Shown piece after piece: positions 38,574 through 56,450 of a DNA stretch of 64,000 bases. The stretch lies in assembly GCA_902784865.1 (NCBI GenBank), contig CACZWL010000006.1, positions 40,112 to 104,111 on the forward strand. Reading direction: 5' to 3'. The notes beneath the pieces are model-generated. The model saw only the letters and a list, made by a program, of their open reading frames with translations. It made no database searches and was not told the DNA's origin. This DNA comes from an uncultured Bacteroidota bacterium. GTDB lineage: Bacteria > Bacteroidota > Bacteroidia > Bacteroidales > P3. The first letter of the stretch is position 1; each line of letters begins with the position of its first letter. The position numbers and the translations under genes were made by a program.

Positions 38574-38616
38574 AATTCTGCTCGTTGCGGCCCCTCCGCA
38601 ACATCAAAAGCCCCCA

Positions 38617-38651
38617 GCGGCCCGCACCACCCTGCGGGCCGCTATCTTTTT
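38617..38651 (+). terminator. Rho-independent terminator of the acd-etf operon
   Basis: gcggcccgca-ccaccc-tgcgggccgc (10-bp stem) followed by tatcttttt. Confidence 0.7.
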
Positions 38652-38653
38652 CT

Positions 38654-38732
38654 GCAAAAAAATGTATGCCAAGACACAAAATATCCGCAAAAAAATGTAT
38701 ATTGCATCTGATTTATGTGCAAAAAAATGCAT
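38654..38732. repeat. Three 14-bp direct repeats (gcaaaaaaatgtat / ..gcat) spaced 32-33 bp
   Basis: Copies at 38654-38667, 38687-38700 and 38719-38732, just upstream of the ATPase ATG at 38741 and exactly at the G+C drop. Confidence 0.75.
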
Positions 38733-38740: not shown

Positions 38741-40024
38741 ATGGAACGCTCTGTATTAAAACAACTTACATATTGGAAAAACAACCACAAAAGAAAGCCT
38801 CTTATTCTGAATGGGGCCCGTCAGGTAGGCAAAACGTGGCTTCTTCGCGAGTTTGCCCATCGCGAATATGCTAAAGAAGCATATATCTATTGCCGCAAAA
38901 ACGAAGCGGCACGCCGCATCTTCGCCCAAGACTTTGATACAGAACGGATACTCATGAACCTACGTGCCCTGTCTGGTGTCGACATCACATCTGGCGACAC
39001 GTTGATCATCCTCGACGAGGTGCAAGACATTCCAGAAGCTATCGAATCGCTGAAATACTTCTACGAAAGCCTCCCCGAATACCATATTGCCGTAGCGGGG
39101 TCGCTGCTCGGCATCTCAATGCACGCCGACATTTCGTTTCCTGTAGGCAAGGTAGATGAAATAAACCTATATCCAATGAGTTTCGAAGAATTTCTGCTAG
39201 CCAAAGGCGAGACAGAACTCGAAAAAGTCCTCTCAATGTGGGAATTTGAAGTACTAAATACACTTCACGAGAAACTCATCGACCTCCTTCGCCAGTACTT
39301 CTATGTGGGCGGGATGCCAGAAGCCGTCAAAGAATATGTCGAAACAGGAGCACTGAACGAAGTCCGCCGTATCCAGAAAAATATTCTTGGTGGCTATGCC
39401 CGCGACTTCTCGAAGCACGCCCCAAAAGAACTGGTGCCACGAATAGAACTAGTGTGGCAATCCATGCCCTCGCAGCTATTCAAAGAGAACAAGAAGTTCA
39501 TCTATGGAGCATTGCGCAAAGGGGCACGTGCCAACGACTTCGAGCTCGCCATCCGCTGGCTTGTCGATGCAGGGCTGCTGTACAAAGTTCCAAGATGCAA
39601 AAAAGTGGCATTGCCGTTGAGCATATACGAAGACCTGTCCGCCTTCAAACTTTACACTCTCGACACCGGTCTTCTGGGAGCCATGGCAAACGTAGAACCG
39701 GCACAGATACTGCTTAACGAGAACGCCTTTGTGGAATACAAGGGAGGCATGACCGAACAATATGTCCTGCAACAGATGACATGTCATGATTCCTGCCCAA
39801 TATACTACCACACAGCCGAAAATTCCCGTCTGAAGATTGACTTCCTCATTCAGCACAATGGCAAGCCACTGCCCATCGAAGTTAAAGCCGGAGGCAATGT
39901 ACGCGCCAACTCCCTCTCTCGGCTCCTGTCTGAGACACCGAACCTTGATGCCATACGATACTCCTTGCTTCCCTACAAAGAACAAGACCATCTGACAAAC
40001 ATCCCACTATACGCCGTGAGATAG
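38741..40024 (+). CDS. AAA+ ATPase with DUF4143-type C-terminal domain
   Basis: 427 aa. KPLILNGARQVGKTWLLREF (Walker A), LIILDEVQ (Walker B). C-terminal half is typical of AAA_14/DUF4143 proteins. AT-rich codon usage. Confidence 0.8.
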   Translation: MERSVLKQLTYWKNNHKRKPLILNGARQVGKTWLLREFAHREYAKEAYIYCRKNEAARRIFAQDFDTERILMNLRALSGVDITSGDTLIILDEVQDIPEAIESLKYFYESLPEYHIAVAGSLLGISMHADISFPVGKVDEINLYPMSFEEFLLAKGETELEKVLSMWEFEVLNTLHEKLIDLLRQYFYVGGMPEAVKEYVETGALNEVRRIQKNILGGYARDFSKHAPKELVPRIELVWQSMPSQLFKENKKFIYGALRKGARANDFELAIRWLVDAGLLYKVPRCKKVALPLSIYEDLSAFKLYTLDTGLLGAMANVEPAQILLNENAFVEYKGGMTEQYVLQQMTCHDSCPIYYHTAENSRLKIDFLIQHNGKPLPIEVKAGGNVRANSLSRLLSETPNLDAIRYSLLPYKEQDHLTNIPLYAVR

Positions 40025-40297: not shown

Positions 40298-40354
40298 ATT
40301 TATGACCTCTATAGTCACGCTAAAAAATCATTTTGCCAATTCAAAAAGATTTCG

Positions 40355-40362
40355 TATTTTTG
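40355..40362 (+). promoter_or_regulatory. -7 promoter box (TATTTTTG) for the helicase operon
   Basis: Matches TAnnTTTG, 12 nt before the ATG at 40374 (24 nt before the ATG at 40386). Confidence 0.45.
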
Positions 40363-40373
40363 CAAAACAAAAT

Positions 40374-43300
40374 ATGTTGTATTTTATGGGCAGCAACTTT
40401 TTTACAAATGAAAACCAAAACACCCTTCTAAACAAGATAGAAGGTGTGTTTCAATACAAGAAAGTACACTTCTTTGATGCATTGGTTGGTTATTTCCGGG
40501 CTTCAGGATATTTCCGCATTAGAAAGTTTGTCCAGCAAACACCCAAAATACGATTTCTTGTTGGTATCAATGTCGACAAACTGACATATATAGCCTCTCA
40601 ACAAGGCTTGCTGTTTACTCCTGATGCCGACAAAACACTTGATGAATTCTTCTCGGACATTAAACAAAACATCCAAGAGGCTAAATACGACAAAGAGGTG
40701 GAGGACGGCATGTACCAGTTCATTGAGGACATATCTACTGGTCGTATTGAGATGAGAATACATCCTAAGCAGAATATACACGCCAAGATTTATATTTTCC
40801 GAGAGGAAACATATCATTCTCATGGGTTTGGATCTGTTATAACTGGATCAAGCAATTTGACGGAAGCTGGACTGGAGAAAAATTTTGAGTTCAATGTAGA
40901 ACTCCGAAATGACGATGATATCCTTTTTGCCACTGAAACATTTGAGAAACTTTGGGCCGAATCTGTCCCTATCTCAACAAAGCATGTGGAGGAGATAAAA
41001 AAAGAGTCGTATCTAAACACCGAACTGACACCATACGAAGTCTACCTCAAGTTCCTATTGGAATATTTTGGCAAGAGTATTGACTTTGACCCCAACTCCG
41101 TCTCTGATTTGCCAAAAGGATATAAGAAGCTGTCCTATCAGATAGATGCTGTCAATGATGGATATGCAAAAATGATGAAACACAACGGATTCTTTCTCTC
41201 CGATGTTGTCGGACTTGGAAAAACCGTTGTCACAGCGCTCATCGCAAAGAAATTTTTCTTTTCCAATGGATTCCCTACATATCGTTCACACACGTTAGTG
41301 ATTGTACCACCGGCCTTGCAAGATTCTTGGGATGAAACCTTGGACAAATTCAAGATAGACAATTACAAGATAGTCACCAATGGTAGTCTACATAAAATCA
41401 AGGATGCAGGCCTATATGATTTGGTGATTGTGGATGAGGCTCACAAGTTCCGCACAGATACTGCCTCAATGTACACCGAGTTGCAGAAAATTTGCAAAAC
41501 TCCTACACGCAGACAGAAACCCGATGGCAGCTTTTATAACAAGAAGGTCATACTGGTGACCGCTACTCCACTGAACAATAAACCTGAAGATATTGCCAAT
41601 CTCGTTTATCTGTTCCAAGACTCGAAAGACAGCACCTTGGAAGAGGGCAATCTTCAACGCTTTTTCCGCGAGCAGATAGACAAATATCGCAAACTGAAAG
41701 ATCAAAAAGATATAGCCTTGATTTCCGAAGGCATAAAGCGGATATATGAACGAATCAGGACAAAGGTTGTAGAGCCTCTCACGGTACGACGCACCAGAAC
41801 CGACCTGATGTCCAACGAAGCATACAAGAAAGACATTCTGGAGCAAGGGGTCGTCTTCCCCGATGTTCAGGCGCCAGAAAAGATATACTACCCCCTTGAT
41901 GATCAGCTCAACGAACTCTACGACAGGACAATCAAGATGCTCTGTGACCCCTATGAGGGATTGACCTATAATCGATACCAGGCCATCAAATATCTGCGTC
42001 CTGAGAAAAAGAAAAAATACAAGAAGGCTGATATGATTTCCACACAGTTGGCCAAAATCATGAAAACCCTTCTTGTCAAACGTATCGACAGCAGTTTCTA
42101 CGCTTTCAAACAATCGCTAAAACGCTATAGCGATGCAAACCGCGTGATGCGGGAGATGTTCGACAAAGGAACCATTTATATCGCCCCAAACCTGAAGGTC
42201 AATGAACTCTTGAATGATGGAAAAGAGGACGAACTCATTAAACTCATCAACGAGTCCATCTATGCCGACCCCACCATCGAAATCTGTGTTCCCGATGATT
42301 TTGAAGACGGATTTCTGGAAGGAATCAAGCACGACGAGGACATCCTCAATCAACTTGTGGATGGGTGGGACAAGATAGATTACGACCCCAAATTGGACAT
42401 GTTCTTTGAATATTTGGACGACAAACTTTTTGACAAAGCAAAGAACAACGAGGGCAAACTGGTTGTATTCTCCGAGAGTAAGGAGACTACCGACTATCTA
42501 CTGGATGCATTGATACAGCACGGCTATCCTCGCACAATTGCTGTCAAAAGCAGCAATCGCAATGAAATGATGCCCATAGTCAAGGCCAACTTCGATGCTA
42601 ACTATACCGAAGGTCAAAAGAATGACATAGACATCATCATTTCTACCGAAGTGTTAGCCGAAGGTGTTAACCTGCATCGTGCCAACGTCATTGTAAACTA
42701 TGATACTCCGTGGAACTCCACACGCCTGATGCAACGCATCGGTCGCGTGAACCGTATTGGCAGCACCGCGAAGGATATCTATATTTACAATTTCTTCCCC
42801 ACACAGAAGGTTAACGATGACATCGAACTGGAAAAGAAAGCTAAGATGAAACTCTTTGCTTTCCACTCCGCGCTTGGCGAAGACAGCCAAATCTATTCTA
42901 CCGATGAAAGCCCAGAGACATTTGGCCTTTTCGACAAGGATATAGACGAAGAACGCGATGAGAAGTTGGTTTACCTTATGCGATTGCGTAAGCTTAAGGA
43001 GGAAGATCCCGACTTGATAAAACGCATTGCCCGTTTGCCTATGCGCTCGCGTGTCGGACGCAAAAGCAAAGTGATGCGAGGGAGCACGCTGGTGTTCATT
43101 CGCAACAATCGTCGCGATGCTTTCACTTTCATTCGGGAGGACGGCTCGCACGAAGACTTGACTTTCCTCGAGGCGGCCAAAGCTTTTGAGGCCAAGGTCG
43201 ACGAAAAATCCATCCCTTTGCACGATTTACACCATCAACAGGTATCACAAGCCATCAGTCTCTTTGCCGAAAAGGATGAGGATAGCAAAGCCATAACGAT

Positions 43301-43652
43301 GAAGGTGAATGTTGCACAAGGGCCTAATGAAAAACGTGCAATAGCGTATCTTGACGCCTGTCTGCACATTGACAATCTGACGGACGAAGAATCCGGTTTG
43401 ATACGTCTGGCCAAGCGAGCCATCACCAGCGGAAAATTCCAACAATTGCAGCGCGATGTAAATAAACTGCAGTCTGCCACCAAGAAAACGCCTGTAAAAC
43501 CCTCAGTTCTGATAGAGAAAGTCATCGCAATTATCTCCTCATACCCATTACAGAATATTTCTACAGACATACCTACGCATACCCCTTCTGCAAACAAAGT
43601 ACAGAAGGGCAACTCACCGGAAATCATCATCTCCGAAAGTTTTAATTCGTAA
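40374..43652 (+). CDS. PLD-like nuclease domain fused to an SNF2-family helicase
   Basis: N-terminus HAKIYIF...GSSNLTEAG (HxK...GSxN PLD motif). SNF2 motifs VVGLGKT, VIVDEAHKFR, VTATPLNN and QRIGRVNRIGS. Alternative start at 40386. The ORF part upstream of 40374 is rejected. Confidence 0.85.
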   Translation: MLYFMGSNFFTNENQNTLLNKIEGVFQYKKVHFFDALVGYFRASGYFRIRKFVQQTPKIRFLVGINVDKLTYIASQQGLLFTPDADKTLDEFFSDIKQNIQEAKYDKEVEDGMYQFIEDISTGRIEMRIHPKQNIHAKIYIFREETYHSHGFGSVITGSSNLTEAGLEKNFEFNVELRNDDDILFATETFEKLWAESVPISTKHVEEIKKESYLNTELTPYEVYLKFLLEYFGKSIDFDPNSVSDLPKGYKKLSYQIDAVNDGYAKMMKHNGFFLSDVVGLGKTVVTALIAKKFFFSNGFPTYRSHTLVIVPPALQDSWDETLDKFKIDNYKIVTNGSLHKIKDAGLYDLVIVDEAHKFRTDTASMYTELQKICKTPTRRQKPDGSFYNKKVILVTATPLNNKPEDIANLVYLFQDSKDSTLEEGNLQRFFREQIDKYRKLKDQKDIALISEGIKRIYERIRTKVVEPLTVRRTRTDLMSNEAYKKDILEQGVVFPDVQAPEKIYYPLDDQLNELYDRTIKMLCDPYEGLTYNRYQAIKYLRPEKKKKYKKADMISTQLAKIMKTLLVKRIDSSFYAFKQSLKRYSDANRVMREMFDKGTIYIAPNLKVNELLNDGKEDELIKLINESIYADPTIEICVPDDFEDGFLEGIKHDEDILNQLVDGWDKIDYDPKLDMFFEYLDDKLFDKAKNNEGKLVVFSESKETTDYLLDALIQHGYPRTIAVKSSNRNEMMPIVKANFDANYTEGQKNDIDIIISTEVLAEGVNLHRANVIVNYDTPWNSTRLMQRIGRVNRIGSTAKDIYIYNFFPTQKVNDDIELEKKAKMKLFAFHSALGEDSQIYSTDESPETFGLFDKDIDEERDEKLVYLMRLRKLKEEDPDLIKRIARLPMRSRVGRKSKVMRGSTLVFIRNNRRDAFTFIREDGSHEDLTFLEAAKAFEAKVDEKSIPLHDLHHQQVSQAISLFAEKDEDSKAITMKVNVAQGPNEKRAIAYLDACLHIDNLTDEESGLIRLAKRAITSGKFQQLQRDVNKLQSATKKTPVKPSVLIEKVIAIISSYPLQNISTDIPTHTPSANKVQKGNSPEIIISESFNS

Positions 43653-43657
43653 CTTTG
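43650..43657 (+). promoter_or_regulatory. Internal -7 box (TAACTTTG) giving a near-leaderless AlbA_2 gene transcript
   Basis: TAACTTTGcaccATG; the box ends 4 nt before the ATG at 43662. Confidence 0.4.
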
Positions 43658-43661
43658 CACC

Positions 43662-45029
43662 ATGAGCGAGACCAACCGCATAGAATACAAAAGGGAATTG
43701 ACGCCCGACCTCGATATTGAAAAAGAGGTTATTGCCTTTTTGAACTACAAAGAAGGAGGCTACATTTATATTGGCATTGACGATGATGGTTCTGTTGTTG
43801 GGATTGATGATGTCGACGAGTGTATGCTGAAACTGAAAGACCGAATAAAAAACAATATCTCGCCATCAGCAATGGGCCTGTTCGACATCGCAAGCGAGTC
43901 ACACGAGGGGCGCACTGTCATAAAAATCACTGTGGCCAGTGGAATCGATAAACCGTATTTTAAAACTAAATATGGTATGACCCCACGCGGGGCATATATC
44001 CGTGTTGGCACATCGGTTGAACCCTTGCCTCAAGAACAGATTGACCGTCTGTTTGCAATGCGCACACGCAACTCCATCAGCAAGATAGTTTCAAACCGCC
44101 AGGATTTGACATTCGAGCAACTGCGTATCTACTATGACGAACGCGGCAAGCGACTGAACGACAATTTTAAGCGCAGTCTCGAATTAGTTACAAAAGAGGG
44201 AGAATACAATTATGTCGCCTATTTGTTGGCTGACGAGAACAACAATTCCATTAAAGTGGCCAAATACTCCAGCCTTGACCGATGCGACCTGATTGAAAAC
44301 AACGAGTATGGCTATTGCTCGCTTATCAAAGCCACCAAAAGCGTACTGACCAAACTGGAGATAGAGAACAAGACGGCTACGAAGATCACTCCTATGGAAC
44401 GAATCGAAACGCCTCTTTGGGACAGGGTGGCTGTGCGCGAGGCCGTAGTAAATGCTATCGTGCATAACGACTATTCCTTTGAAGTGCCACCCAAGTTCGA
44501 GATTTTCCCCGACAGGCTGGAAATTACCTCCGCGGGCAGACTTCCTGAATCCCTAAGTCGAGAGGAATTCTTTACAGGCATCTCCATCCCGCGCAACAAA
44601 GAGCTGATGCGTATCTATCGCGACCTCGATATTGTGGAATCGTTGGGCTCGGGTATACCGCGCATCCTCCGCTCCTATGGTGAAGATTGCTTCCATTTTA
44701 CTGACAACTTTATCCGAATCACCTTTCCTGCAAGTGTACGCATTGACTATGCAAGTGCATCTGCAAGTGCAACTGAAAATAAGACGGAAAAAACTACGGA
44801 AAAGTGGCCAGAAAAGTGGCCAGAAAAGTGGCCAGAAAAAGGCCAAAAAATATTAGATGCTATCTCTAATGATAAATCAACAACTATCGCAAAATTAGAA
44901 GTAGAACTAAAAATTGGACATACTACTCTAAAAAAGATATTACGTGAGATGCAGAACGAGAACATCATCCGCCATGTCGGACCTGACAAAGGTGGTCACT
45001 GGGAAATTGTAAATAATGACGCTAAATAG
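43662..45029 (+). CDS. AlbA_2 (Schlafen-like) / HATPase_c_4-like / winged-HTH protein (often annotated RecG-like putative transcriptional regulator)
   Basis: 455 aa. N-terminus NRIEYKRELTPDLDIEKEVIAFLNYKEGGYIYIGIDDDG. Middle REAVVNAIVHNDY...ESLGSGIPRI. C-terminus TTIAKLEVELKIGHTTLKKILREMQNENII. Confidence 0.8.
   Translation: MSETNRIEYKRELTPDLDIEKEVIAFLNYKEGGYIYIGIDDDGSVVGIDDVDECMLKLKDRIKNNISPSAMGLFDIASESHEGRTVIKITVASGIDKPYFKTKYGMTPRGAYIRVGTSVEPLPQEQIDRLFAMRTRNSISKIVSNRQDLTFEQLRIYYDERGKRLNDNFKRSLELVTKEGEYNYVAYLLADENNNSIKVAKYSSLDRCDLIENNEYGYCSLIKATKSVLTKLEIENKTATKITPMERIETPLWDRVAVREAVVNAIVHNDYSFEVPPKFEIFPDRLEITSAGRLPESLSREEFFTGISIPRNKELMRIYRDLDIVESLGSGIPRILRSYGEDCFHFTDNFIRITFPASVRIDYASASASATENKTEKTTEKWPEKWPEKWPEKGQKILDAISNDKSTTIAKLEVELKIGHTTLKKILREMQNENIIRHVGPDKGGHWEIVNNDAK
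44799..44834. repeat. Perfect 12-bp x3 tandem repeat (gaaaagtggcca) inside the AlbA_2 gene
   Basis: Encodes (EKWP)x3. A degenerate fourth unit, gaaaaaggcca, follows. Confidence 0.85.
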
Positions 45030-48000
45030 CAAGATAAGAATAAAAATAGCACACAATATGAACCGCCAAGACTTAAAACAGATACTATCATCAAAGTTCG
45101 ACTTCGCCAAGTGGAAAGAACTGCTCCTTGATATGTTCAAGAGTGTTGATTTCTTTACCAAGACTGTAGCCGTTGATGCAGACTTGATAAAGTCTGGTGG
45201 ACAGCTGGGCACAATCCATCTTGGCGATAGGCGTGATATTGCACTTTTCGTTTTTGAAGTGGCAGACCACGTAAAAATAGAAAGAAACCGTATAGGTCTT
45301 CGTAAAATCGGAGCAAAGTATGTCGACCAAAACATCGTTCATGGCGCATTGGTTTTTTACTATTCATCTTCGCAAGCCAACTATCGTTTGACTTATGTGT
45401 CAAAGAAAACGGTTCTGGATGCCGCAGGTAATTTAATCACGCAAGAAACAGCACCGAAACGTTTCACTTTCTTGTTAGGCGAAAACGAACCTTGCAGCAC
45501 CGCTGCACAACGATTGATACGCTTTTTTAATTCCAAGGATGTTCCGGTAATGGCCGATTTAGAAGAAGCTTTTTCGGTCGAGCGCTTGAATAGCGAGTTT
45601 TTTGATGGCTACAAAAGCCAATATAAGAAATTCAAAGATACGCTTCCAAATACGAGACGTCATAGAGACTATGTAAAAAAACTCTTAGGACGCCTTGTGT
45701 TTCTCCAGTTCTTGCAAAAGAGAGGCTGGATGGGCGTTCCTGTCAACGTGGAAGGCTGGGAAGGTGGAGACAAACAATATTTATACAATTTAATTCATCG
45801 TTACGAAGGCAACGATAGATTGTTAAGTGATGTACTTGAATATTTGTTCTTCAATACGTTGAATGAAAAGCGCAATGGCGATATCGCTGATAAACGCCTG
45901 GGAGACAATATCAAAATACCTTATTTGAATGGAGGTCTGTTTGAGAAGGATGATATAGACAGGATGGATATAGATTTCCCTTTCGAATATTTTGCCAATT
46001 TGATAGATTTCTTCTCAATGTATAACTTTACAATTGATGAGAATGACCCTGACGATGCAGAAGTGGGTGTTGATCCAGAAATGTTAGGACATATCTTCGA
46101 AAACCTGCTTGAAGATAACAACGAGAAAGGTGCCTACTATACCCCCAAGGAAATTGTCCAATACATGAGTCAAGAGAGTGTGTCGCAATATTTGAAGAAA
46201 CATCTGGAAGGGGAATTCCAGGAAGCGGTTGACGATTTGATTATGCGGAATGTCGTTGCTGAAGTCATCCAAAACAAGAATGTGGCAAAGAAAATTGACG
46301 AATTATTGGATAACGTTAAAGTATGCGATCCAGCCATTGGCTCGGGAGCATTTCCGATAGGGGTGATGAATGTTTTGTATCGAGCCCATCTGCATCTATA
46401 CGGCTTTTCAAATCCCACTAAACCTTTTTCCCCGGCTTCTGTCAAAAAAGATATTATCCAAAACAACATCTATGGTGTGGATATTGAACAAGGAGCTGTA
46501 GATATTGCACGATTGCGCTTCTGGCTTGCCCTTATCGTTGATGAGGAAGAACCTGTGCCACTCCCCAATTTGGATTATAAAATAGTGTGTGGCGACTCTT
46601 TGTTGAACCGCTACGATCTTGACGTTCCTATTAAATCGGTATTTGTTGAATACAATCAGAGCCATACTGGCAAGGAAAGCAAAATGTCCTTGCAGAAATA
46701 CAAACAATTGGTGGCCGATTTCACTAATACGGATGACCACAATGCAAAAAATATATTCCGGGGTAAAATTGAGGAGATTAAAAACTCATTCCGATTCTAC
46801 TTGTCCAAAAAAGAGGCTAATAGTTTGATGAAATTACGTAGTGAGGTCGCCTATTACAATTATCCCCGTTTTTTTGAAGAAACAGAGGAAGAGGCTGCAC
46901 ATCGTAAGAACCGTCAGGCAGACTTGGCGCAAATGGAGGAGTATGCAAAGAATATTGAGACCAATAGACTCTATAGCAACTCCTTTGAATGGCGCTTTGA
47001 ATACCCTGCATTGTTAGATGAGGATGGAAACTTCACTGGTTTTGACATCATCATTGGCAACCCGCCTTATTTGAGAATTCAGGGCCTTAGAGAAAGGGAC
47101 TCTGACTATGCTGATGAGTTAGTTAAAAAATACAAATCTGCGACAGGCTCCTTCGATTTGTACGAGATGTTTGTTGAACAAGGATTAAAGTTGTCGGGTG
47201 ATAATGGTATCGTGAATTATATCATGCCCACCAAATGGACAAACTCTGCCTTCGGCAAAGGCCTTCGTAAACTATTGGTGGAGCAAACTGCCATTTCGAA
47301 GATTATCAGCTTTGGAGACTATCAGATATTTGATGCATCTACCTACACGGGGCTCCAGTGGTTTGTCAAAGGAAGTACCCGGCTGGAATATTATGAACTG
47401 GATAGAAGCATCACATCGAAAGACGACCTGCAGAAATTCCTATTTTCACTCACTCAAGAGAAATCAACTACAATCGAGATGTCTTCATTGTCCGAGAAAC
47501 AATGGGTACTCACATCTGGCGAAACTTCTCGAATCTTGAAAGAAATGAACAGGCAGCCCAGACACATCAAAGACGTGTTTGACAAGATATTTCAAGGTTT
47601 GGCAACCAGTAAGGATGATGTATATTTCCTTTATAATTGTGAAGAAGAAGGAAAGTACGTTGTTGGAGATTCCAAACAATTAGGCAGGCGAATCAAAGTG
47701 GAGAAAGGAATAGTAAAACCTTTGTTAAAGGGTGGAAATGTACATAGATATGATACTATTTCGACAAATATGTACGTAATATTTCCATACATAATCAAAG
47801 AAGGTAATGCAGTATTGATTCCAGAAGATGATTTAAGTAACAAATTCCCAATGGCGTATTCATACCTAAAAGAAAATGAATCACCTCTCAGAAATAGAGA
47901 ACATGGCAGATTTAACATAGATGGTTCTTGGTTTCAATTTGGAAGAAAACAAGGCATTTTATCAGCTGAAACAGAAAAACTGGTCGCCCCAGATATTTCT

Positions 48001-48603
48001 ATGGGTGGGAATTTCGCCTATGACATTGATGGGAAATTTTATCAGACAACTACAATCTACGGATATTTAAAAAAAGCAAATGTCAAAGAAAGTTACGAAT
48101 TCTGGATGGCGTTGCTTAATTCCCGACTTTGCTGGTGGTTTTTGACAAATACCGGAACCACATTGGCCAATGGTTTCTTCAGATTCAAACCTGATTACAT
48201 TAATCCTTTCCCTATTCCAATTGAAACGCAAACAGAGAAATGTTCATTCATTATTGAGTCATTGGCGACCATGATTCAGTATTTGTATAACAAAAGCAAT
48301 AAAGAATTATATACCCATACCTTGAATGAAAGACTTGCAATCCATCTCGAAGAAATAATAGACATGGTTGTTTACGAGTTATACTTTGAACAACACATGA
48401 AGGAACAAAAGATAGATGTAATTGAGGATTTGAAGGGTTATAAATGGAATAATAACAAAATAATCGCCGAACAAATCAAAGATTTCTATCAATGGTTCCA
48501 GCAGTCCGATAATATGGTTCGTCAAAAGCTAATGCTGCTTGATACTCGCAGTTCAAACCTTTTGTATGAAATCCATAAATCCTGGAGATATGAGCAAAAT
48601 TAA
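45016..48603 (+). CDS. Eco57I-like N6-adenine DNA methyltransferase with TaqI_C-like specificity region (about 1200 aa, no nuclease motif recognised)
   Basis: Motif I VCDPAIGSGAFPIG and motif IV IIIGNPPY. The C-terminal third has FQGLATSKDDVYFL and FRFKPDYINPFPIP. The ATG at 45016 overlaps the upstream gene by 14 nt; the alternative ATG is at 45058. Confidence 0.85.
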   Translation: MTLNSKIRIKIAHNMNRQDLKQILSSKFDFAKWKELLLDMFKSVDFFTKTVAVDADLIKSGGQLGTIHLGDRRDIALFVFEVADHVKIERNRIGLRKIGAKYVDQNIVHGALVFYYSSSQANYRLTYVSKKTVLDAAGNLITQETAPKRFTFLLGENEPCSTAAQRLIRFFNSKDVPVMADLEEAFSVERLNSEFFDGYKSQYKKFKDTLPNTRRHRDYVKKLLGRLVFLQFLQKRGWMGVPVNVEGWEGGDKQYLYNLIHRYEGNDRLLSDVLEYLFFNTLNEKRNGDIADKRLGDNIKIPYLNGGLFEKDDIDRMDIDFPFEYFANLIDFFSMYNFTIDENDPDDAEVGVDPEMLGHIFENLLEDNNEKGAYYTPKEIVQYMSQESVSQYLKKHLEGEFQEAVDDLIMRNVVAEVIQNKNVAKKIDELLDNVKVCDPAIGSGAFPIGVMNVLYRAHLHLYGFSNPTKPFSPASVKKDIIQNNIYGVDIEQGAVDIARLRFWLALIVDEEEPVPLPNLDYKIVCGDSLLNRYDLDVPIKSVFVEYNQSHTGKESKMSLQKYKQLVADFTNTDDHNAKNIFRGKIEEIKNSFRFYLSKKEANSLMKLRSEVAYYNYPRFFEETEEEAAHRKNRQADLAQMEEYAKNIETNRLYSNSFEWRFEYPALLDEDGNFTGFDIIIGNPPYLRIQGLRERDSDYADELVKKYKSATGSFDLYEMFVEQGLKLSGDNGIVNYIMPTKWTNSAFGKGLRKLLVEQTAISKIISFGDYQIFDASTYTGLQWFVKGSTRLEYYELDRSITSKDDLQKFLFSLTQEKSTTIEMSSLSEKQWVLTSGETSRILKEMNRQPRHIKDVFDKIFQGLATSKDDVYFLYNCEEEGKYVVGDSKQLGRRIKVEKGIVKPLLKGGNVHRYDTISTNMYVIFPYIIKEGNAVLIPEDDLSNKFPMAYSYLKENESPLRNREHGRFNIDGSWFQFGRKQGILSAETEKLVAPDISMGGNFAYDIDGKFYQTTTIYGYLKKANVKESYEFWMALLNSRLCWWFLTNTGTTLANGFFRFKPDYINPFPIPIETQTEKCSFIIESLATMIQYLYNKSNKELYTHTLNERLAIHLEEIIDMVVYELYFEQHMKEQKIDVIEDLKGYKWNNNKIIAEQIKDFYQWFQQSDNMVRQKLMLLDTRSSNLLYEIHKSWRYEQN

Positions 48604-50530
48604 CTCAATAACCCTTTCCAACTTCAAGTTCTTTGGTAAAGAAGAAACAATCGAATTAGGTGGTAAGCACCTCCTACTCTACGGTGAGAACGGTAGCGGA
48701 AAAAGTTCTATCTACTGGGCATTATACACATTATTGGAAGCTGCAAGAAAGACTACTCTGGAGACAGGAAAATACTTTGTCCCATTATCCTATAGTGCAG
48801 ATTCCTTACTTAATATACATGCCACCAAAGAATCTTCTCCTGTTGAACACTACAACTCTTATATTCGTATTCTTGATGATGGTAATCATCAGTATGAGTT
48901 ATCTTTATGGAGGGAGAATGTTTGTGGCAATTCTAATATAATGGAGTCTAGACTTTCTTCGGAGTTTATCAACTATCAATCACTGTATAAATTTCAAGAT
49001 TTCAAGAATAGTGAAGATCCTGATCTCTATAACATTTTTATAAACACAATCCTTTCTAACGAGAGTTTTGGAACATACAGATTAAAAGGCAAAATACTAG
49101 ACAATGCGTATGAAATGTGGGTTGAGTTTCAAGATGGCCCGGGCACAACTGTTAACAGCAAAGGAGAAACAATCCAAGTATATAAAAACAGTCAACAATA
49201 TATTGATTTCGTTGATATGGTTAGCGGGTTCAACCGCGGAATGAATGGGTTGATAAATGACATCAATAGCAACGCACAAAAGTATGTTAATAGTCTCGGG
49301 TACAATATGTCCTTTCATCTTGAATACAAAGAGCCTACATTCAAGAAAAAAGATAAAAAATATGAGTGGACACCATTTGGCATCCGTCTTACAATAACAA
49401 AATACGATGGAGTAGACGTAACAGTTGAACGCCCCCACAAGTTTCTAAATGAAGCGAGAATGTCTGCCATAGCAATTGCTATTAGGCTATCTATTATTAA
49501 GCGAAGAATTGGAGCTTCTGCTCCCGATGCACTAAAGTTATTGTTGTTGGATGATATCATGATTAGCCTCGATATGAGCAATCGAGACAAATTGCTAAAA
49601 TTGTTTTTATGTGAGTTAACAAAAGATTTCCAAGTTTTATTATTCACACATGACAAACGCCTATATGAATATATTGGACATCGGATAAACATAGAGAAGC
49701 AAAAGAAAAACTGGATTACATACGAGATGTATTCAGGTATTGATGCCATCAGTAAACATGAAGTTCCTATTATCATTAAATCAGAATGTGAATTTATTGA
49801 TAAAGCAAAGAAATTTTTCGATGTATCAAAAGACTATTCATCTTGTGCAATTAACCTCAGAAAAGCTTTGGAGATGGAGACAGGAAATCGTCTTCCAATT
49901 GAATTGAAAAAAAGAGCAATTGGAGGTTATGTTGATTTGCAAACACTTTGGGACAAGCTGAAGGAATATTATTCTAATAATAAATATCTTGATTCCAAAA
50001 AGATTAAACCAATTGATGACCTTTTTAAAGAATCGAAATTGTTTATTTTAAACCCTTCTGCACACTATCAAAGCCTATCGAATCCTATATATAGAAGTGA
50101 ATTAGAAAAGGCGTTTTTACTGTATTCGGAAGTCGCAGCTTTACCAATAGTGCATAGAGAATTAAAGATATCTAAAGATTCATATATCCTATGTTCTATT
50201 TCTGCAAAAAAATACACTTGTGGCTTTTATCTGGACGACGATTTGGTCGTAGTCGAAGGAGAACACATAATAAGCAGAATGCCAAAATGCTATAAAATTT
50301 TTTGGGAATATAACGGAATAGAATACTATAATTTTGTCACAGGTGTCAAAGATTTAACTAATCCATTAATAAAATCGACTCCCAAATTGGATTCTTTTAT
50401 TAGCAGGCTACCACTTGGTATTGACGAACAAACATTTTTGTCCAACTGTCGTATAAATGGCATACCAATAAATGACTATTTGGGTGGAGTTAATATTTCA
50501 TCATTGATTGTTCAATCCGCAAAACCATAA
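48590..50530 (+). CDS. ABC/SMC-like (RecF/AAA_13-15-23 type) ATPase with an uncharacterised C-terminal domain of about 270 aa
   Basis: 646 aa. ITLSNFKFFG...LLLYGENGSGKSS (Walker A), LLLLDDIMISLD (Walker B/D-loop), LLFTHD (H-loop). Start overlaps the methylase gene by 14 nt. Confidence 0.75.
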   Translation: MSKINSITLSNFKFFGKEETIELGGKHLLLYGENGSGKSSIYWALYTLLEAARKTTLETGKYFVPLSYSADSLLNIHATKESSPVEHYNSYIRILDDGNHQYELSLWRENVCGNSNIMESRLSSEFINYQSLYKFQDFKNSEDPDLYNIFINTILSNESFGTYRLKGKILDNAYEMWVEFQDGPGTTVNSKGETIQVYKNSQQYIDFVDMVSGFNRGMNGLINDINSNAQKYVNSLGYNMSFHLEYKEPTFKKKDKKYEWTPFGIRLTITKYDGVDVTVERPHKFLNEARMSAIAIAIRLSIIKRRIGASAPDALKLLLLDDIMISLDMSNRDKLLKLFLCELTKDFQVLLFTHDKRLYEYIGHRINIEKQKKNWITYEMYSGIDAISKHEVPIIIKSECEFIDKAKKFFDVSKDYSSCAINLRKALEMETGNRLPIELKKRAIGGYVDLQTLWDKLKEYYSNNKYLDSKKIKPIDDLFKESKLFILNPSAHYQSLSNPIYRSELEKAFLLYSEVAALPIVHRELKISKDSYILCSISAKKYTCGFYLDDDLVVVEGEHIISRMPKCYKIFWEYNGIEYYNFVTGVKDLTNPLIKSTPKLDSFISRLPLGIDEQTFLSNCRINGIPINDYLGGVNISSLIVQSAKP

Positions 50531-50543
50531 GTAGATCATTGAT

Positions 50544-51968
50544 ATGGAACAAGCACCTATACTCATCACCACCCAATACGAGGCTGAAAGATTTGAGACA
50601 TTCCTAGCCTTGTCCGACAATCACAGAATCCTATTCTCTGGGAAATATGGGAGTGGCAAGACCTTTTTCTTGCATGAGTTCTTTACTACACGGAAAAAGG
50701 ATGAATATGAGGTATTCCATCTTTTCCCGACTAACTATACAATAGCGAAAAACGAGGATGTCGTCAAACTACTCCAGTTTGATATCTTATATGAGCTACT
50801 GGTGAAAGGTTATCTGGCTCCGTCAAAGAAACTGTTTACTACACAAGAAACCATGGCTGGCTTCGTGCAAAACAATTTCCCTAATATCATTAAGGATGTT
50901 GTATCCCATTGCGGCAAAATCGGAAAGAAACTGTCAGATGTATTTGATACCTACACCCAATGGGCTGCAAAGTACGAGGCCTTCGATAAAGGTATTAACC
51001 AAAATGCAGAAGATAAGGCAAGAGAAGCATTCTATAACCTGATAAATGAGGTTGAATATAATGCCACTACGGAGTTAATAGAGATGATCAACTCCACGAT
51101 TGACAAGCAAAAGGTTCTTATAGTAGATGACCTCGACAGAATTGACCCAGAGCACATCTTCAGATTACTCAACCTCTTCTCAGCACAGACATCCAATTAC
51201 TTCCCCGCCCATTGGCCTATTAACCAGGATGAAAATCGTTATGGGTTCGACAAAATCATATTTGTCTGCGACATAGACAATATCCGCAATATCTTCCGCG
51301 CCAAATATGGTGACGGCGTTGACTTCGCTGGATATATCGACAAATTCTACAGCATAGCGCCCTATTTCTTCAACAATAATAATATGGTTGCCCAAGAGGC
51401 ACACCTTTTTGTTGCATCCATCAACTCTGAATGGCCTGTACAGAGCAGAGAACAGTTCTCCTCGCTTGTCAGGATGCTGTTGTTCCATAATGTCATCACT
51501 TTGAGAAAACTGAAAGAAAAGGAATTTGCACATTGGGAATATCCAACCAGGAAACACCCCTCAATTATCCAAGGAAACAATATATGGTCTGTCGGGATAC
51601 TTGATTTGATGCTTTTTCTATTTGGAACCAAAGAAGACGCAACTGCGGCGTTAAAGAAAAACACTGAAGAAATATCATTAGACTTGTTGGAAAGGTCTGG
51701 CTATCGCCTTACCGATATGTTGATTCCTTTCCTTCTTCCCAATGCCACCTTGACAGTCGGAGAAGATTTTGTTTACGAGAACCAAGACCTTGACATAAAA
51801 TTATACTATAAATGTGAACCTTACAATAGAGAAATCTATGCTGAATTGAAAACAGCTTCCAGTATCAACGGAAGTGAAAGGAAAAAGATACCGTTCTTCC
51901 GACTAATGTCAATCGCTTTGGAAAATTATTGCAAACTGATAGAAGTCCCCAATGTCATAAGATATTAA
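50544..51968 (+). CDS. KAP-family P-loop NTPase
   Basis: 474 aa. ILFSGKYGSGKTFFL (Walker A) and KVLIVDDLDRIDPEHIFRLLN (the KAP-type DDLDR Walker B). Confidence 0.8.
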   Translation: MEQAPILITTQYEAERFETFLALSDNHRILFSGKYGSGKTFFLHEFFTTRKKDEYEVFHLFPTNYTIAKNEDVVKLLQFDILYELLVKGYLAPSKKLFTTQETMAGFVQNNFPNIIKDVVSHCGKIGKKLSDVFDTYTQWAAKYEAFDKGINQNAEDKAREAFYNLINEVEYNATTELIEMINSTIDKQKVLIVDDLDRIDPEHIFRLLNLFSAQTSNYFPAHWPINQDENRYGFDKIIFVCDIDNIRNIFRAKYGDGVDFAGYIDKFYSIAPYFFNNNNMVAQEAHLFVASINSEWPVQSREQFSSLVRMLLFHNVITLRKLKEKEFAHWEYPTRKHPSIIQGNNIWSVGILDLMLFLFGTKEDATAALKKNTEEISLDLLERSGYRLTDMLIPFLLPNATLTVGEDFVYENQDLDIKLYYKCEPYNREIYAELKTASSINGSERKKIPFFRLMSIALENYCKLIEVPNVIRY

Positions 51969-51981
51969 GTGATTCATTCGC

Positions 51982-52053
51982 ATGGAATTCAAACGAGAAC
52001 TGACCAACGACCTTGACATTGAAAAAGAGGTGATCGCATTATTCAAAATCTAA
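51982..52053 (+). pseudogene. 23-codon remnant of a second AlbA_2-family gene
   Basis: MEFKRELTNDLDIEKEVIALFKI* aligns with residues 8-30 of the 43662 gene (EYKRELTPDLDIEKEVIAFLNYK). The DNA is similar but not identical. Confidence 0.65.
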
Positions 52054-52117
52054 GAGTCAGAACACCATAATGTTTGAATGTGCTAATGTGTAAATGTGTT
52101 AGTGAATATCGGAATGC

Positions 52118-53014
52118 ATGAATATGTTAACGACAATGAGCAATAAGAAATCCATACGTTTTTTCAACGACCACGAGGTGCGAGCCATTTGGAACGAGGA
52201 GAACAGCAAGTGGTGGTTCTCCGCCACCGATATGGTTCGCGCCATCAACGATGAAGAGGACTACAAGAAATGCCGCAACTACTGGAAATACTTGAAAGGC
52301 AAGATGGCCAAAGAAGGCATCCAACTGGTTAGTGTCACTAACCACTTCAAATTTATGGCTCCCGACGGCAAACAACGCGCGTCCGACGCTCTTGATGCCG
52401 AAGCTGTACGGACGTTGGCACAACACTACCCCAATAACCGGGCAAACGCTTTCCTCAGCTGGTTCGTCTACAGCGACAACACCATCGACGGACAGAGCAA
52501 GAAGAAAGCCTATACGCTAGCCGAAAGTGGTATCCTCGACAGCATGAAGCCCGGCACCGTCAAATGCCTCCAGCAAATCCACGCCTACCTTTTCGGAGGC
52601 CTCTACGACTTCGCGGGCAAGATACGCACGAAGACCATCGCCAAGGGCAACACACTGTTCTGTTTGGCAGAGCATCTGCAAAGCTACCTGAAAACCGTGG
52701 AGGTAATGCCAGAGACGACATTCGATGAGATAGTAGACAAATACGTGGAGATGAACGCAGCACACCCCTTCATGGAAGGCAACGGCCGTTCGAGACGCAT
52801 CTGGCTCGACTTAATCTTCAAGAAGCAACTGAAGGTGTGTGTCGATTGGAGCAAGATAGACAAACGGGATTACCTCGACGCCATGATAGCCAGCCAGACC
52901 GACAGCAGTCGTATCCGCGAACTCCTCAAAGGCGCATTGACAGACCGCATCGACGACCGCGAGTTGTTCATGAAAGGCATCGACTACTCCTACTATTATG
53001 AACAGGAAGACTGA
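52118..53014 (+). CDS. Fic-family protein with Bro-N-like N-terminal domain
   Basis: 298 aa. HPFMEGNGRSRR matches the Fic motif HPFx(D/E)GNGRxxR. N-terminus IRFFNDHEVRAIWNEENSKWWFSATDMVRAIN resembles Bro-N. Confidence 0.85.
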   Translation: MNMLTTMSNKKSIRFFNDHEVRAIWNEENSKWWFSATDMVRAINDEEDYKKCRNYWKYLKGKMAKEGIQLVSVTNHFKFMAPDGKQRASDALDAEAVRTLAQHYPNNRANAFLSWFVYSDNTIDGQSKKKAYTLAESGILDSMKPGTVKCLQQIHAYLFGGLYDFAGKIRTKTIAKGNTLFCLAEHLQSYLKTVEVMPETTFDEIVDKYVEMNAAHPFMEGNGRSRRIWLDLIFKKQLKVCVDWSKIDKRDYLDAMIASQTDSSRIRELLKGALTDRIDDRELFMKGIDYSYYYEQED

Positions 53015-53047
53015 ATTGCAAAACAAAACATGCTAATCTAAAAAACA

Positions 53048-55010: not shown

Positions 55011-56222
55011 ATGAAACACTACGACTTCGACACCCCGATCGACCGCCACGGCACCGACTGCTTCAAGTGGGACGCCCTGCCGGCGATGTACCACCGCGAC
55101 GACCTCACCCCCATGTGGGTGGCCGACATGGACTGGCGCTCGCCGGACTTCGTGCTCGACGCCATCCGCCAGCGCCTCGACCACCCCGTGCTGGGCTACA
55201 CCATGCCCTCCGTCGCCTACTGGCAGGCCGTGACCGCCTGGCTGGCCAAGCATTACGGCATCCAAACCACCAAGGAGAGCCTCCACTTCATCCCCGGCAT
55301 CGTGGCCGGCATCAGCTACGCCCTGCTGGCGCTGACCGAGCCGGGCAACCGCGTGCTGGTCACCACGCCCGTCTACCCGCCCTTCCTAAACCTTCCGCGC
55401 GCGAGCGGTAGGGAACTGGTGTGCAGTCCGCTGAAGATTGCTGGCGGACACGGCACGCCGTGTCCCTACAGGTTTGAGATAGACTTCGCCGACTTCGAGC
55501 GCAAGGCCGAAGGATGCAAGATGTTCATTATGAGCAATCCCCACAACCCCGCCGGCACGATATGGGGCGAGGCGGCGCTGCGCCGCGTGGCCGACATCTG
55601 CGAGCGCAACCACATGCTGGTCGTCAGCGACGAAATCCACGCCGACCTCGTCCTGCCCAGACGCAAGCATGTGAGCTACAGCACGGTATCCGATGCCGCC
55701 GCGCGCCACAGCATCACCTTCATGGCCCCCAGCAAGACCTTCAACATCGCCGGCCTCGGCAGCTCTGTGTGCTTCATTTCAAATGAAGCCTTGCGCAGGC
55801 GCTTCTACGGCTGGCTAGACGCCTTGGGCGTGGCCGGGGGCAACATATTCGCCTTCACCGCCGCCGAAGCCGCCTTTGCCCACGGCGAGGAGTGGCGGCA
55901 GCAGATGCTGGTCTACCTAAATGGCAACGTGCAGGTCCTCAAAGAGTTCCTGGCCGAGCGACTGCCGGAGGTGAAGGCCGTGCTGCCCGAGGCCTCCTAC
56001 CTGGCCTGGCTCGACTTCAGCGCCTACGGCATCCCGCACAAGGAGCTGGCCGACCGCTTCATCAACGAAGCCCACGTGGTGATGAACGACGGCACCACCT
56101 TCGGGGTGCACGACGATGCAATCGGCGGCAACGCCTACCAGGGCTGCTTCCGCCTCAACCTCGGCTGCCCGAAGACGCAACTCCTCGACGTGCTCGAGCG
56201 CATATCTCGCATGCTTGCCTGA
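55011..56222 (+). CDS. MalY/PatB-type PLP-dependent cystathionine beta-lyase (aminotransferase class I/II)
   Basis: 403 aa. DFDTPIDRHGTDCFKWD N-terminus, SNPHNPAGT, and the SKTFNIAG PLP-lysine motif. Confidence 0.85.
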   Translation: MKHYDFDTPIDRHGTDCFKWDALPAMYHRDDLTPMWVADMDWRSPDFVLDAIRQRLDHPVLGYTMPSVAYWQAVTAWLAKHYGIQTTKESLHFIPGIVAGISYALLALTEPGNRVLVTTPVYPPFLNLPRASGRELVCSPLKIAGGHGTPCPYRFEIDFADFERKAEGCKMFIMSNPHNPAGTIWGEAALRRVADICERNHMLVVSDEIHADLVLPRRKHVSYSTVSDAAARHSITFMAPSKTFNIAGLGSSVCFISNEALRRRFYGWLDALGVAGGNIFAFTAAEAAFAHGEEWRQQMLVYLNGNVQVLKEFLAERLPEVKAVLPEASYLAWLDFSAYGIPHKELADRFINEAHVVMNDGTTFGVHDDAIGGNAYQGCFRLNLGCPKTQLLDVLERISRMLA

Positions 56223-56246
56223 ATCCCTCCCACCCCACCCCAGCCA

Positions 56247-56300
56247 AGGGGACGGTAGGGACTCTCTAGGGGAATACTTCGCCTTGTCCGCGATTGTCCG
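56247..56300. repeat. Left copy of the imperfect direct repeat bracketing island 2
   Basis: aggggacggtagggactctctaggggaatacttcgccttgtccgcgattgtccg. It aligns with 58857-58913 at 51 of 57 columns in my manual alignment. Confidence 0.75.
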
Positions 56301-56330
56301 CCCGGGCGGACAATCGCGGTCTCCTTTTTT
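56288..56330 (+). terminator. Rho-independent terminator after the beta-lyase gene
   Basis: Perfect 16+16 palindrome ccgcgattgtccgccc/gggcggacaatcgcgg followed by tctcctttttt. Confidence 0.8.
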
Positions 56331-56357
56331 AGGGGGCGATGCGCCGCGACCGGAACC

Positions 56358-56450
56358 AGCCCGCGAAGCGGGCGGCACTTTAATTAGCCGTGGGCGCAAG
56401 CCCACGGTATGCGGGGCACCACCTCGTGGAGCCCGCGAAGCGGGCGGCAC
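56358..56450. repeat. GC-rich structured module: 21-bp perfect direct repeat x2 flanking a GCAA-loop hairpin
   Basis: agcccgcgaagcgggcggcac at 56358-56378 and 56430-56450, each holding a gcccgc-GAA-gcgggc mini-hairpin. ccgtgggc-gcaa-gcccacgg lies at 56388-56407. Confidence 0.7.

Follow-up and report, generated by a model that had tools for sequence, protein, structure and literature searches.

The window analysed here is a 64,000-nucleotide stretch of contig CACZWL010000006.1 from an uncultured Bacteroidota bacterium (assembly GCA_902784865.1), and our subject is a block of five plus-strand genes within it, g1 to g5 (Table 1), which was originally predicted from the letters alone to form a single, unclassified five-gene defence operon. 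An open reading frame (ORF) check confirms five tightly packed ORFs with spacings of +9, -14, -14 and +13 nt, and a terminator scan found no strong plus-strand terminator inside the block. The G+C content of 34-46% at 40-52 kb, as opposed to ~60-61% in the flanks and chromosome, bears out the description of an AT-rich block in a G+C-rich chromosome. Every Pfam domain of g1-g5 lies above its gathering score, and the catalytic motifs said to be intact in g1, g3, g4 and g5 were all located. We depart from the original prediction over the extent of the unit: the conserved system is probably made up of g1, g3 and g4, constituting a three-gene, ATP-dependent, restriction-modification (RM)-like defence system that would work by the mechanism proposed below, with g2 and g5 as add-ons.

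Table 1. Genes and remnants of the AT-rich island and its edges (window coordinates).
Feature	Position	Strand	Description
PDC-S01 gene, left flank of island	38741-40024	+	AAA_14 + DUF4143 ATPase (Pfam); PADLOC PDC-S01, 572 bits
g1	40386-43652	+	Core gene 1, PLD-SNF2 helicase-nuclease
g2	43662-45029	+	Embedded accessory gene: prokaryotic Schlafen (AlbA_2), GHKL/HATPase_c_4-like, C-terminal winged helix-turn-helix (wHTH)
g3	45016-48603	+	Core gene 2, gamma-class N6-adenine DNA methyltransferase with TaqI_C-type target recognition domain (TRD)
g4	48590-50530	+	Core gene 3, compact ABC ATPase
g5	50544-51968	+	Lineage-specific accessory gene, KAP-family P-loop NTPase
AlbA_2/Schlafen 5' remnant	51979-52055	+	77 nt, direct repeat of g2 start
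g6, right flank of island	52118-53014	+	Bro-N + Fic protein adenylyltransferase (Pfam); PADLOC PDC-S04, 520 bits

The first core gene, g1, probably starts at 40386 (MGSNFF...) and not at 40374, since its homologues are 1088-1089 amino acids (aa) long and an exact 1088-aa product is on record. Its product consists of an N-terminal single-HKD PLD nuclease domain, a complete SNF2-type SF2 motor and a ~230-aa C-terminal region without a family match, the Pfam domains being PLDc_2, RE_NgoFVII, SNF2-rel_dom and Helicase_C. The corresponding motifs are HAK at residue 132 followed by GSSNLT (the latter read from the translation), GLGKT at 276, DEAH at 350 and QRIGRVNR at 783; no modified-base reader (SRA or similar domain) was recognisable in g1 with Pfam. 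The best PADLOC match of g1 is to 'HKD+Snf2' C3a139, at 163 bits, and it also matches the DrmD, BrxHII and HmaA models, far below the family cut-offs; the NCBIfam model 'phospholipD_antiphage' likewise reaches only 148 bits, where the cut-off is 1100.

The second core gene, g3, may start at Met15 (45058), leaving a 28-nt gap after g2, because a methionine stands at this column in 87% of aligned homologues and the homologue in L097 is called 28 nt after a g2-like gene. Pfam identifies Eco57I (139 bits), TaqI_C and N6_Mtase together with weaker MmeI_Mtase and MmeI_hel matches, and the protein resembles M.BseCI in the Protein Data Bank (PDB; E 1.5e-14); in PADLOC it matches REase_MTase_IIG (295 bits), DrmMI (105) and PglX (87). 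Across 52 family members, methylase motifs I (DPAIGSG, 438) and IV (NPPY, 682) show conservation above 90%, and residues 180-400 are also strongly conserved, with the blocks NGGLF, DPExLGxxFENLL and YYTP. Conservation is poor over the first ~170 aa, which can be aligned with the N-terminal end of REBASE-type IIG profiles and hold a vestige of a D...ExK motif, D71...E81-V-A83, in which the lysine is missing from the window copy, and across the same 52 members the putative nuclease triad retains D in 22, E in 27 and K in 14. With no lysine at this position and a triad that varies across the family, this region looks like a vestigial or decayed restriction endonuclease (REase)-like domain, and we rejected g3 as an active Type IIG nuclease on the same grounds. 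The original statement that no PD-(D/E)xK nuclease is present is for this reason put somewhat too firmly. Like a Type IIG enzyme, g3 joins methylase and TRD in one polypeptide; it differs in having no active N-terminal PD-(D/E)xK motif.

The third core gene, g4, matches SMC_N, AAA_23, AAA_21 and AAA_29 in Pfam and carries a Walker A motif (GENGSGKS, 32), a Walker B motif (LLLLDD, 317) and an H-loop. Its AlphaFold2 model (mean confidence, pLDDT, 86) contains a compact SMC/Rad50-like ABC head (Foldseek E ~1e-11) and no long coiled coil, the insert holding one 34-residue helix. The C-terminal module is specific to the family and comprises a helical bundle followed by a beta-rich domain; R424, E428, N488, H492 and E504 in the bundle are invariant among the 30 sequences of an alignment of the family (A1). 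This module gave no Pfam or PADLOC match and no significant Foldseek match on the confident model, and a profile search against PDB sequences returned noise-level TPR-like matches only. The Foldseek match of highest probability was the HEPN protein 2hsb (probability 0.69, TM score 0.52 normalised to the target), which at E 0.84 is not significant, and the module carries a [hydrophobic]-N-P-x-x-H motif without the arginine of the canonical HEPN Rx4-6H. The best PADLOC match of g4 is mad3 (58 bits), over the P-loop and Walker B regions only. HMMER places g4 in a family of 308 clusters at 50% identity (E<=1e-30), mostly of 600-660 aa and aligned end to end.

Gene neighbourhoods were surveyed with g4 as the anchor: alignment A1, of 30 g4-family clusters, led to 80 genomic loci, and the domains of the window were run by phmmer against all ORFs of these loci, 56 of which have at least 7.5 kb upstream of the ATPase and were taken as informative. 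The 80 loci span at least 15 phyla, including Bacteroidota, Bacillota, Fusobacteriota, Campylobacterota, Desulfobacterota, Cyanobacteriota and Acidobacteriota, as well as Verrucomicrobiota, Pseudomonadota, Chloroflexota, Poribacteria, Latescibacterota and others. The three conserved genes are co-oriented and keep the order PLD-SNF2 helicase, ~1200-aa Eco57I/TaqI_C methylase, ~640-aa ABC ATPase (hereafter the trio). Helicase, methylase and ATPase occur together in 49 of the 56 informative loci. A same-strand methylase/TRD (TaqI_C) gene ends at the ATPase start in 50, an SNF2 helicase lies upstream in 49, and both helicase and methylase abut in 45; in four more (L058, L060, L078 and L092) the trio is complete, but other genes, ~3 kb in all, separate the methylase from the ATPase. 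A PLD domain is present in 46 or more of the 49 helicases, having been detected in 33 by phmmer and in 13 of the further 15 by Pfam. There is no conserved fourth gene, the 49 first downstream ORFs forming no cluster larger than two. It is this combination, a trio retained in 49 of 56 loci and no constant fourth partner, that argues for a three-gene unit.

These counts also settle how much of the original prediction is retained. Its view of the methylase and the PLD-SNF2 motor-nuclease as the heart of the system agrees with the co-occurrence of both in the 49 loci, and the recurrence of the gene order in unrelated genomes, which it proposed to check, is found in dozens of them for helicase, methylase and ATPase but not for the KAP gene. 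The ABC ATPase, which had been taken for part of an extra layer, is instead a near-obligate third core gene of ~640 aa.

The trio is also found on IMG/VR contigs, and as cargo of an integrase and MobC/relaxase mobilisable element that is very common in gut Parabacteroides and Bacteroides (cluster P0032, with 1468 sequences in 471 index blocks). In L001-L008, which represent this element, the region 3' of the trio (18718-22326) encodes a 371-aa protein without a family match, an MC3-domain protein, a 628-680-aa LmuB_C-domain protein and RhuM, and may be a further defence module.

Comparison of close relatives indicates that parts of the trio turn over rapidly. In alleles from the same species and the same locus (L184/L185) the helicase is 97-100% and g2 95-98% identical, the catalytic part of g3 is 40% identical, the TRD is undetectable and the ATPase is ~37% identical or undetectable. 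A break near 46200 (g3 residue ~395) recurs in L184, L185 and L105, and between alleles the DNA upstream of it is 81-91% identical while downstream similarity vanishes. Because similarity is lost past this recurrent recombination break, the catalytic/TRD half of the methylase and the ATPase are replaced as a cassette, even within a species at one locus. Other exchanges have different boundaries: L096 is 90-98% identical through the TRD, with an ATPase only 50% (N-terminal part) and 30% (C-terminal part) identical, and L016 has a distant helicase (32%) with a TRD and an ATPase each 55% identical to those of the window. In an RM-like system the TRD is expected to be exchanged; that the ATPase changes just as fast suggests that it is exposed to an arms race. 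That the ATPase is tied to the TRD is indicated by a reduced two-gene variant, in which a stand-alone TaqI_C protein overlaps a short (~477-aa) g4-like ATPase and no helicase or methylase domain lies nearby (L183, L064, L076 and L089). In L183, the Nostoc cf. commune conjugative plasmid pANSO36B, this pair occupies 8985-11431. The plasmid database yielded only two weak records, annotated 'AAA family ATPase'.

Neither of the remaining two genes behaves as a constant component. The g2 product matches SLFN_AlbA_2 (78.8 bits) and HATPase_c_4 (54.1 bits) in Pfam, HTH_24 being matched by its close homologues, and its translation contains an intact Ex4ExK motif (E3-TNRI-E8-Y-K10), the catalytic motif defined for prokaryotic Schlafens (PMC13056530). 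With a Slfn/AlbA_2 nuclease domain, a GHKL-like domain and an HTH it matches the Schlafen-HisKinase-HTH architecture, which accounts for 19.2% of 5,930 catalogued prokaryotic Schlafens; these proteins are phage-triggered, Mn-dependent tRNases that work as stand-alone defence genes (PMC13056530). Schlafen-HisKinase-wHTH genes have been reported embedded in BREX and BREX-related loci in more than 1000 taxa. A g2-like gene lies between helicase and methylase in L009/L010, L096, L105, L184-186, L188, L189 and L193, and is absent from L001-L008, whose helicase is 75% identical to g1. As it is present in some close relatives and missing from others, g2 is most readily seen as an optional, independently mobile embedded cassette of the known prokaryotic-Schlafen tRNase class. 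The sensor or regulator role first ascribed to it is not sustained, the class being described as effector tRNases. In the linker before the wHTH of g2, at 44805-44845, a tandem EKWP-encoding repeat varies in length between strains, giving products of 451 or 455 aa in otherwise 99.9% identical DNA.

The g5 product scores 40.6 bits against KAP_NTPase (PF07693; cut-off 20), has Walker A (GKYGSGKT, 33) and Walker B (VLIVDD, 191) motifs, and received no PADLOC or NCBIfam assignment. A KAP NTPase was found in none of the 80 g4-anchored loci and none of 17 viral contigs. At other genomic sites a KAP gene of at least 74% identity does follow a helicase-Schlafen-methylase-ATPase block (L096/L097 and L105), and L009, a Bacteroidales locus with an 88% identical helicase, keeps the first 180 nt of a KAP gene (20134-20313, 82% identical), called as a 65-aa ORF and followed by RhuM; from the retention of this 5' remnant, KAP was ancestral in the L009 lineage and later deleted. 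More distant relatives occur beside other systems: at 58% identity inside a Type I RM operon, adjoining a Schlafen gene; at 52% with Mrr on one side and an AlbA_2 gene on the other; and, at ~38%, directly after a PLD-SNF2 and ~1170-aa methylase pair, in the position of the ABC ATPase (L168:1200-9416 and L172:369-7334). The genes directly adjoining KAPs of still lower similarity, 65 in number, include DNA methylases more often than any other family. Absent from the 80 loci and otherwise found beside other RM systems, g5 is an accessory NTPase of the RM-associated type that has become fixed in just this close Bacteroidales sub-lineage, rather than the integral second-layer NTPase that had been proposed. 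The AlbA_2 remnant begins 10 nt after the g5 stop, shares 75% identity with 43677-43753 and is cut short by a stop codon; intact AlbA_2 genes come after the KAP homologues of 58% and 52% identity, and g5 with its remnant is suggestive of a decayed KAP-Schlafen pair. A general two-gene 'KAP + Schlafen' cassette was considered and rejected, since KAPs of 30-45% identity have no such Schlafen gene directly beside them and the combination is local only.

Pfam and PADLOC profile searches brought the five genes under no single system, and the original statement that the combination fits no named system holds in that PADLOC v2 and NCBIfam r20 contain no model that places the set, nor one specific for the trio. 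Of the architectures described so far, the closest is that of the Type-2 BREX-related system, which comprises an HKD-Swi2/Snf2 helicase, an N6-methylase, a DUF499 ATPase and, in 98% of taxa, DUF3780 (Rakesh & Krishnan, NAR 2026, PMC12839542), and is related to Hma of PADLOC (PMC12839542; Payne et al. 2021, PMC8565338). Common to both are an N-terminal HKD/PLD domain fused to a Swi2/Snf2 helicase (the predicted effector in that system), an N6-adenine methylase, a third NTPase gene and a tendency for other defence genes, Schlafen-HisKinase-wHTH included, to be embedded. The third gene there, however, is a DUF499 protein (BrxC-like AAA+), whereas that of the trio is an ABC ATPase, and the trio has no DUF3780. 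Hma itself consists of a DUF1156 methylase (HmaB), a DUF499 ATPase and a helicase that ends in a PD-(D/E)xK domain (HmaA); g1 matches the HmaA model over the helicase C-lobe only (93 bits). As Pfam detected no DUF499, DUF3780 or DUF1156 in the island genes, we rejected membership of Hma or the Type-2 BREX-related group despite the shared HKD-Snf2 and N6-methylase pair.

DISARM class 1, ARMADA and BREX type 3 share a pair of SNF2 helicase and PglX-like methylase, and the SNF2 (DrmD/BrxHII-like) helicase and PglX/DrmMI-like N6-adenine methylase of the trio are reminiscent of the first two of these. They, however, need YprA/DUF1998 proteins, where the trio has an ABC ATPase as its third component, and the genes at 38.7-54 kb encode neither a DUF1998 nor a YprA-type protein. 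DISARM also has a PLD nuclease, DrmC, whilst the PLD domain of the trio is fused to the SNF2 protein. DISARM class 1 was rejected because there is no DrmA/DUF1998 (the sole DrmA model match, 73 bits on g1, reflects generic helicase similarity), DISARM_DrmD reaches 145 bits against a cut-off of 610, and DrmMI scores 105 against 295 for IIG. BREX (types 1-6) was rejected since the island holds no PglZ or DUF499 and the best it achieves with a PglX model is 93 bits, the cut-off being 500, and Type I RM since no Methylase_S or HSDR_N match was found in the island. The original prediction had noted that the defining components of BREX (PglZ, BrxC), DISARM (DrmA, DUF1998) and Type I systems (HsdS, HsdR) are lacking, and Pfam, PADLOC and NCBIfam agree.

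Two further systems contain an ABC ATPase. Pbe/CxC combines a long coiled-coil ABC ATPase of the CxC/DndD clade with DndE and a small disordered protein, modification being by phosphorothioate or cytosine methylation (PMC10853773). Its HKD nuclease fused to an SF2 helicase, its ABC ATPase and its occasional DNA methylases recall the trio, as do partial matches of PbeA (69 bits, g1 N-terminus) and PbeC (24 bits, g4). In contrast, the methylase of the trio is a TRD-bearing, PglX-like N6-adenine enzyme, and membership was rejected because g4 has no long coiled coil and there is no DndE-like gene. MADS is an eight-gene system in which MAD6-8 are mandatory and a delta-mad3 strain still methylates (bioRxiv 10.1101/2023.03.30.534895). 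It resembles the trio in N6-methylation-based discrimination of self from non-self and in the small ABC ATPase (mad3) beside the methylase; membership was rejected because MAD6, MAD7 and MAD8 are missing, the only mad match of the six proteins (g1-g6) in PADLOC being the partial mad3 match of g4.

Among restriction enzymes, the g1 PLD domain matches the Pfam family RE_NgoFVII and so recalls CglI/NgoAVII, in which NTP-driven restriction is carried out by a PLD nuclease and an SF2 motor as separate proteins, alongside a C5 methylase. Type ISP enzymes such as LlaGI place nuclease (of the Mrr type), motor, methylase and TRD in a single polypeptide and cut when two translocating enzymes collide. 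Neither CglI/NgoAVII nor the Type ISP enzymes are known to act with an ABC ATPase. Some RM operons contain ABC-HEPN genes, adjoining RhuM and Fic genes, and PrrC of EcoprrI, an anticodon nuclease of the ABC-HEPN kind encoded within a Type Ic RM operon, offers a parallel to g4 both in its ABC ATPase with a C-terminal helical domain and in the RhuM and Fic neighbours seen in the window and related loci. Unlike PrrC and RloC, g4 has no canonical Rx4-6H but the h-N-P-x-x-H motif with invariant R424 and E428, no PrrC or RloC model is among its listed PADLOC and NCBIfam matches, and it is near-obligate in its system where PrrC is optional. The trio would work like Hma/BREX-related systems, DISARM, ARMADA, Pbe and MADS. 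It is a member of none as currently defined: a defining component of each was looked for and not found, and scores lie far below cut-offs. No name for it was found in PADLOC v2, NCBIfam r20 or the searchable literature, a scope that does not cover the ABC-ATPase classification of Krishnan et al.

On these grounds we propose the following mechanism. The methylase-TRD would read a short motif and methylate host DNA as the mark of self; on unmethylated invader DNA it would instead license translocation by the SNF2 motor. In the single-HKD PLD proteins Nuc and BfiI two copies pair into one active site. Since the PLD domain of g1 likewise has a single HKD, two copies would have to pair for cleavage, and hence two motors would have to meet. 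ABC heads dimerise on ATP binding, and the ABC ATPase might by this means either clamp two complexes together, as a licensing factor, or sense phage interference and release the nuclease. By analogy with mad3 of MADS, g4 would be needed for restriction and not for methylation. Where g2 is present, its tRNase would add an abortive second layer.

The rapid turnover of the ATPase favours a sensor or guard role for g4. A more specific version, which we put forward tentatively and regard as possible though doubtful, is that g4 is a new near-obligate guard, whose fast-evolving head and C-terminal module would respond to phage anti-restriction factors or to the condition of the methylase-TRD, and which would then either license PLD dimerisation or act as a PrrC-like non-canonical HEPN RNase (through R424, E428, N488 and H492). 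If this were true then, taken with the versions that carry KAP (L168 and L172), DUF499 or YprA, the chassis of SNF2 helicase and PglX-like methylase would accept interchangeable NTPase sensor modules.

Several points weigh against the three-gene reading or limit it. Seven of the 56 informative loci have no detectable SNF2 gene. In L168 and L172 KAP replaces the ABC ATPase, whose place it holds, and the third component therefore appears to be replaceable. The ABC signature of g4 is atypical (FLNEA for LSGGQ) and its Walker B motif ends in DD, not DE, so that g4 may hydrolyse ATP poorly. Because g3 matches IIG profiles strongly, automatic annotation would list it as a Type IIG enzyme standing alone, and the 2020 classification by Krishnan et al. 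(NAR 48:10045), a survey of ABC ATPases linked to RM systems, may already list the g4 family. Methylation, cleavage and defence by the trio are predictions from sequence, and the role given to g4 follows from synteny and turnover only.

Nevertheless, the three-gene system accounts for the data better than the explanations that would enlarge, dissolve or reassign it. An obligate five-component system, with a Schlafen sensor/regulator and both NTPases as an integral second layer, would explain the tight packing and overlaps of g1-g5 and the recurrence of the five-gene order in close relatives (L096/L097 and L105, with the KAP 5' remnant in L009). It is made very improbable by the absence of KAP from all ATPase-anchored loci and viral contigs, by the lack of g2 in the abundant P0032 element, by the occurrence of KAP relatives in Type I RM, Mrr and other methylase contexts, and by the stand-alone nature of prokaryotic Schlafens as defence genes; the original claim that the five genes are one unit is thus not upheld. 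At the other extreme, g3 could be a stand-alone Type IIG enzyme that lies by chance beside g1, as a SauUSI- or Hna-like PLD-helicase nuclease independent of methylation, and g4, as an ABC ATPase of the Abi type. The IIG profile matches of g3 do reach 295 bits, HmaA-type and PLD-helicase proteins are able to protect on their own, and ABC ATPases head many independent systems, but order, strand and abutment of the trio are kept across at least 15 phyla, g3 lacks the ExK lysine and a conserved triad, and g1 has no recognisable modified-base reader, and we accordingly think this juxtaposition highly unlikely.

That the trio is a divergent member of the Hma/Type-2 BREX-related, class 1 DISARM or ARMADA groups with its third gene swapped is an idea to which the shared chassis gives some substance: the HKD-Swi2/Snf2 helicase and N6-methylase recur in Type-2 BREX-related systems, the SNF2 and PglX-like pair is common to DISARM class 1, ARMADA and BREX type 3, and g1 matches DrmD, BrxHII and HmaA as g3 does DrmMI and PglX. 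We consider it unlikely, given how far the scores fall below the cut-offs (DrmD and PglX above), the absence of DUF499, DUF3780, DUF1156, DrmA/DUF1998 and YprA, and a third gene that belongs to the ABC superfamily and not to AAA+ or SF2. Lastly, the trio could serve its carrier mobile element (through post-segregational addiction or exclusion of rivals) or epigenetic regulation in place of anti-phage defence. Its presence as cargo of the integrase and MobC/relaxase element of gut Bacteroidales, the reduced variant on a conjugative plasmid and its fixation at one chromosomal site in the window species are in keeping with such a role, to which we nevertheless attach very little weight: known or candidate defence genes are its neighbours (Schlafen, PDC-S01, PDC-S04, RhuM and LmuB_C), hypervariability of TRD and ATPase is typical of an arms race, and service to an element is in any case compatible with defence.

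Should the three-gene reading be right, current pipelines probably split the trio into 'Type IIG RM' and orphan genes, and its definition would correct many gut-microbiome annotations. The trio may also be one reason why transformation, conjugation and phage therapy meet barriers in Bacteroidales, and it would add a case of an SNF2-methylase chassis with an ABC ATPase as third subunit. The swapping of TRD and ATPase within a species amounts to a natural experiment on specificity and arms-race evolution, and the locus as a whole gives contexts for poorly understood Schlafen HisKinase-HTH genes, RM-linked KAP NTPases, and PDC-S01 and PDC-S04.

With regard to its setting, the g1-g5 block lies between an electron transfer flavoprotein (ETF) operon, closed by a strong terminator at 38616-38643, and a lipoprotein/rubrerythrin cluster. 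The host ETF-alpha protein clusters with proteins named 'Bacteroidales bacterium', and the closest g1 homologues (74-98% identity) come from Bacteroidaceae, Parabacteroides and Phocaeicola; since both point to the same order, the host is itself a high-G+C member of the Bacteroidales that acquired the AT-rich DNA from within the order. The island is at the same site in every retrieved strain with an identical ETF-alpha gene, with no empty site among them. Because the PADLOC candidates PDC-S01 and PDC-S04 flank the g1-g5 block, the region is a small defence island. The original designation of a defence locus is upheld. The PDC-S01 gene is outside the operon. Its length differs by strain (282, 346 or 427 aa, the shorter forms being truncated), and upstream of it, at 38651-38732, are three ~17-nt direct repeats, TCTGCAAAAAAATGTAT; a fourth copy of this repeat lies inside g4, at 50201-50217. 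The g6 product passes the NCBIfam NmFic equivalog cut-off (250 bits against 230), and the 149-nt gap after g5 places g6 outside the operon core. A Fic gene like g6 is also found 3' of the methylase-KAP pair in L107.

A further 17-nt direct repeat, TTGCAAAACAAAAyATG, brackets g1-g6, with one copy before the g1 start (40360-40376) and one after the g6 stop (53016-53032). The former overlaps a Bacteroides-type -7 promoter-like element, TATTTTTG, at 40353-40360, and the repeat could be a promoter motif or a recombination scar; for the idea that the two copies are att sites of the island, the retrieved strains offered no empty site for comparison. Beyond the island, a second AT-rich patch at 56000-59000 (36-38% G+C) contains a 380-aa ORF (56754-57896) without a Pfam or PADLOC match and the 5' part of a gene for a WG-repeat protein, and may be another acquired segment.

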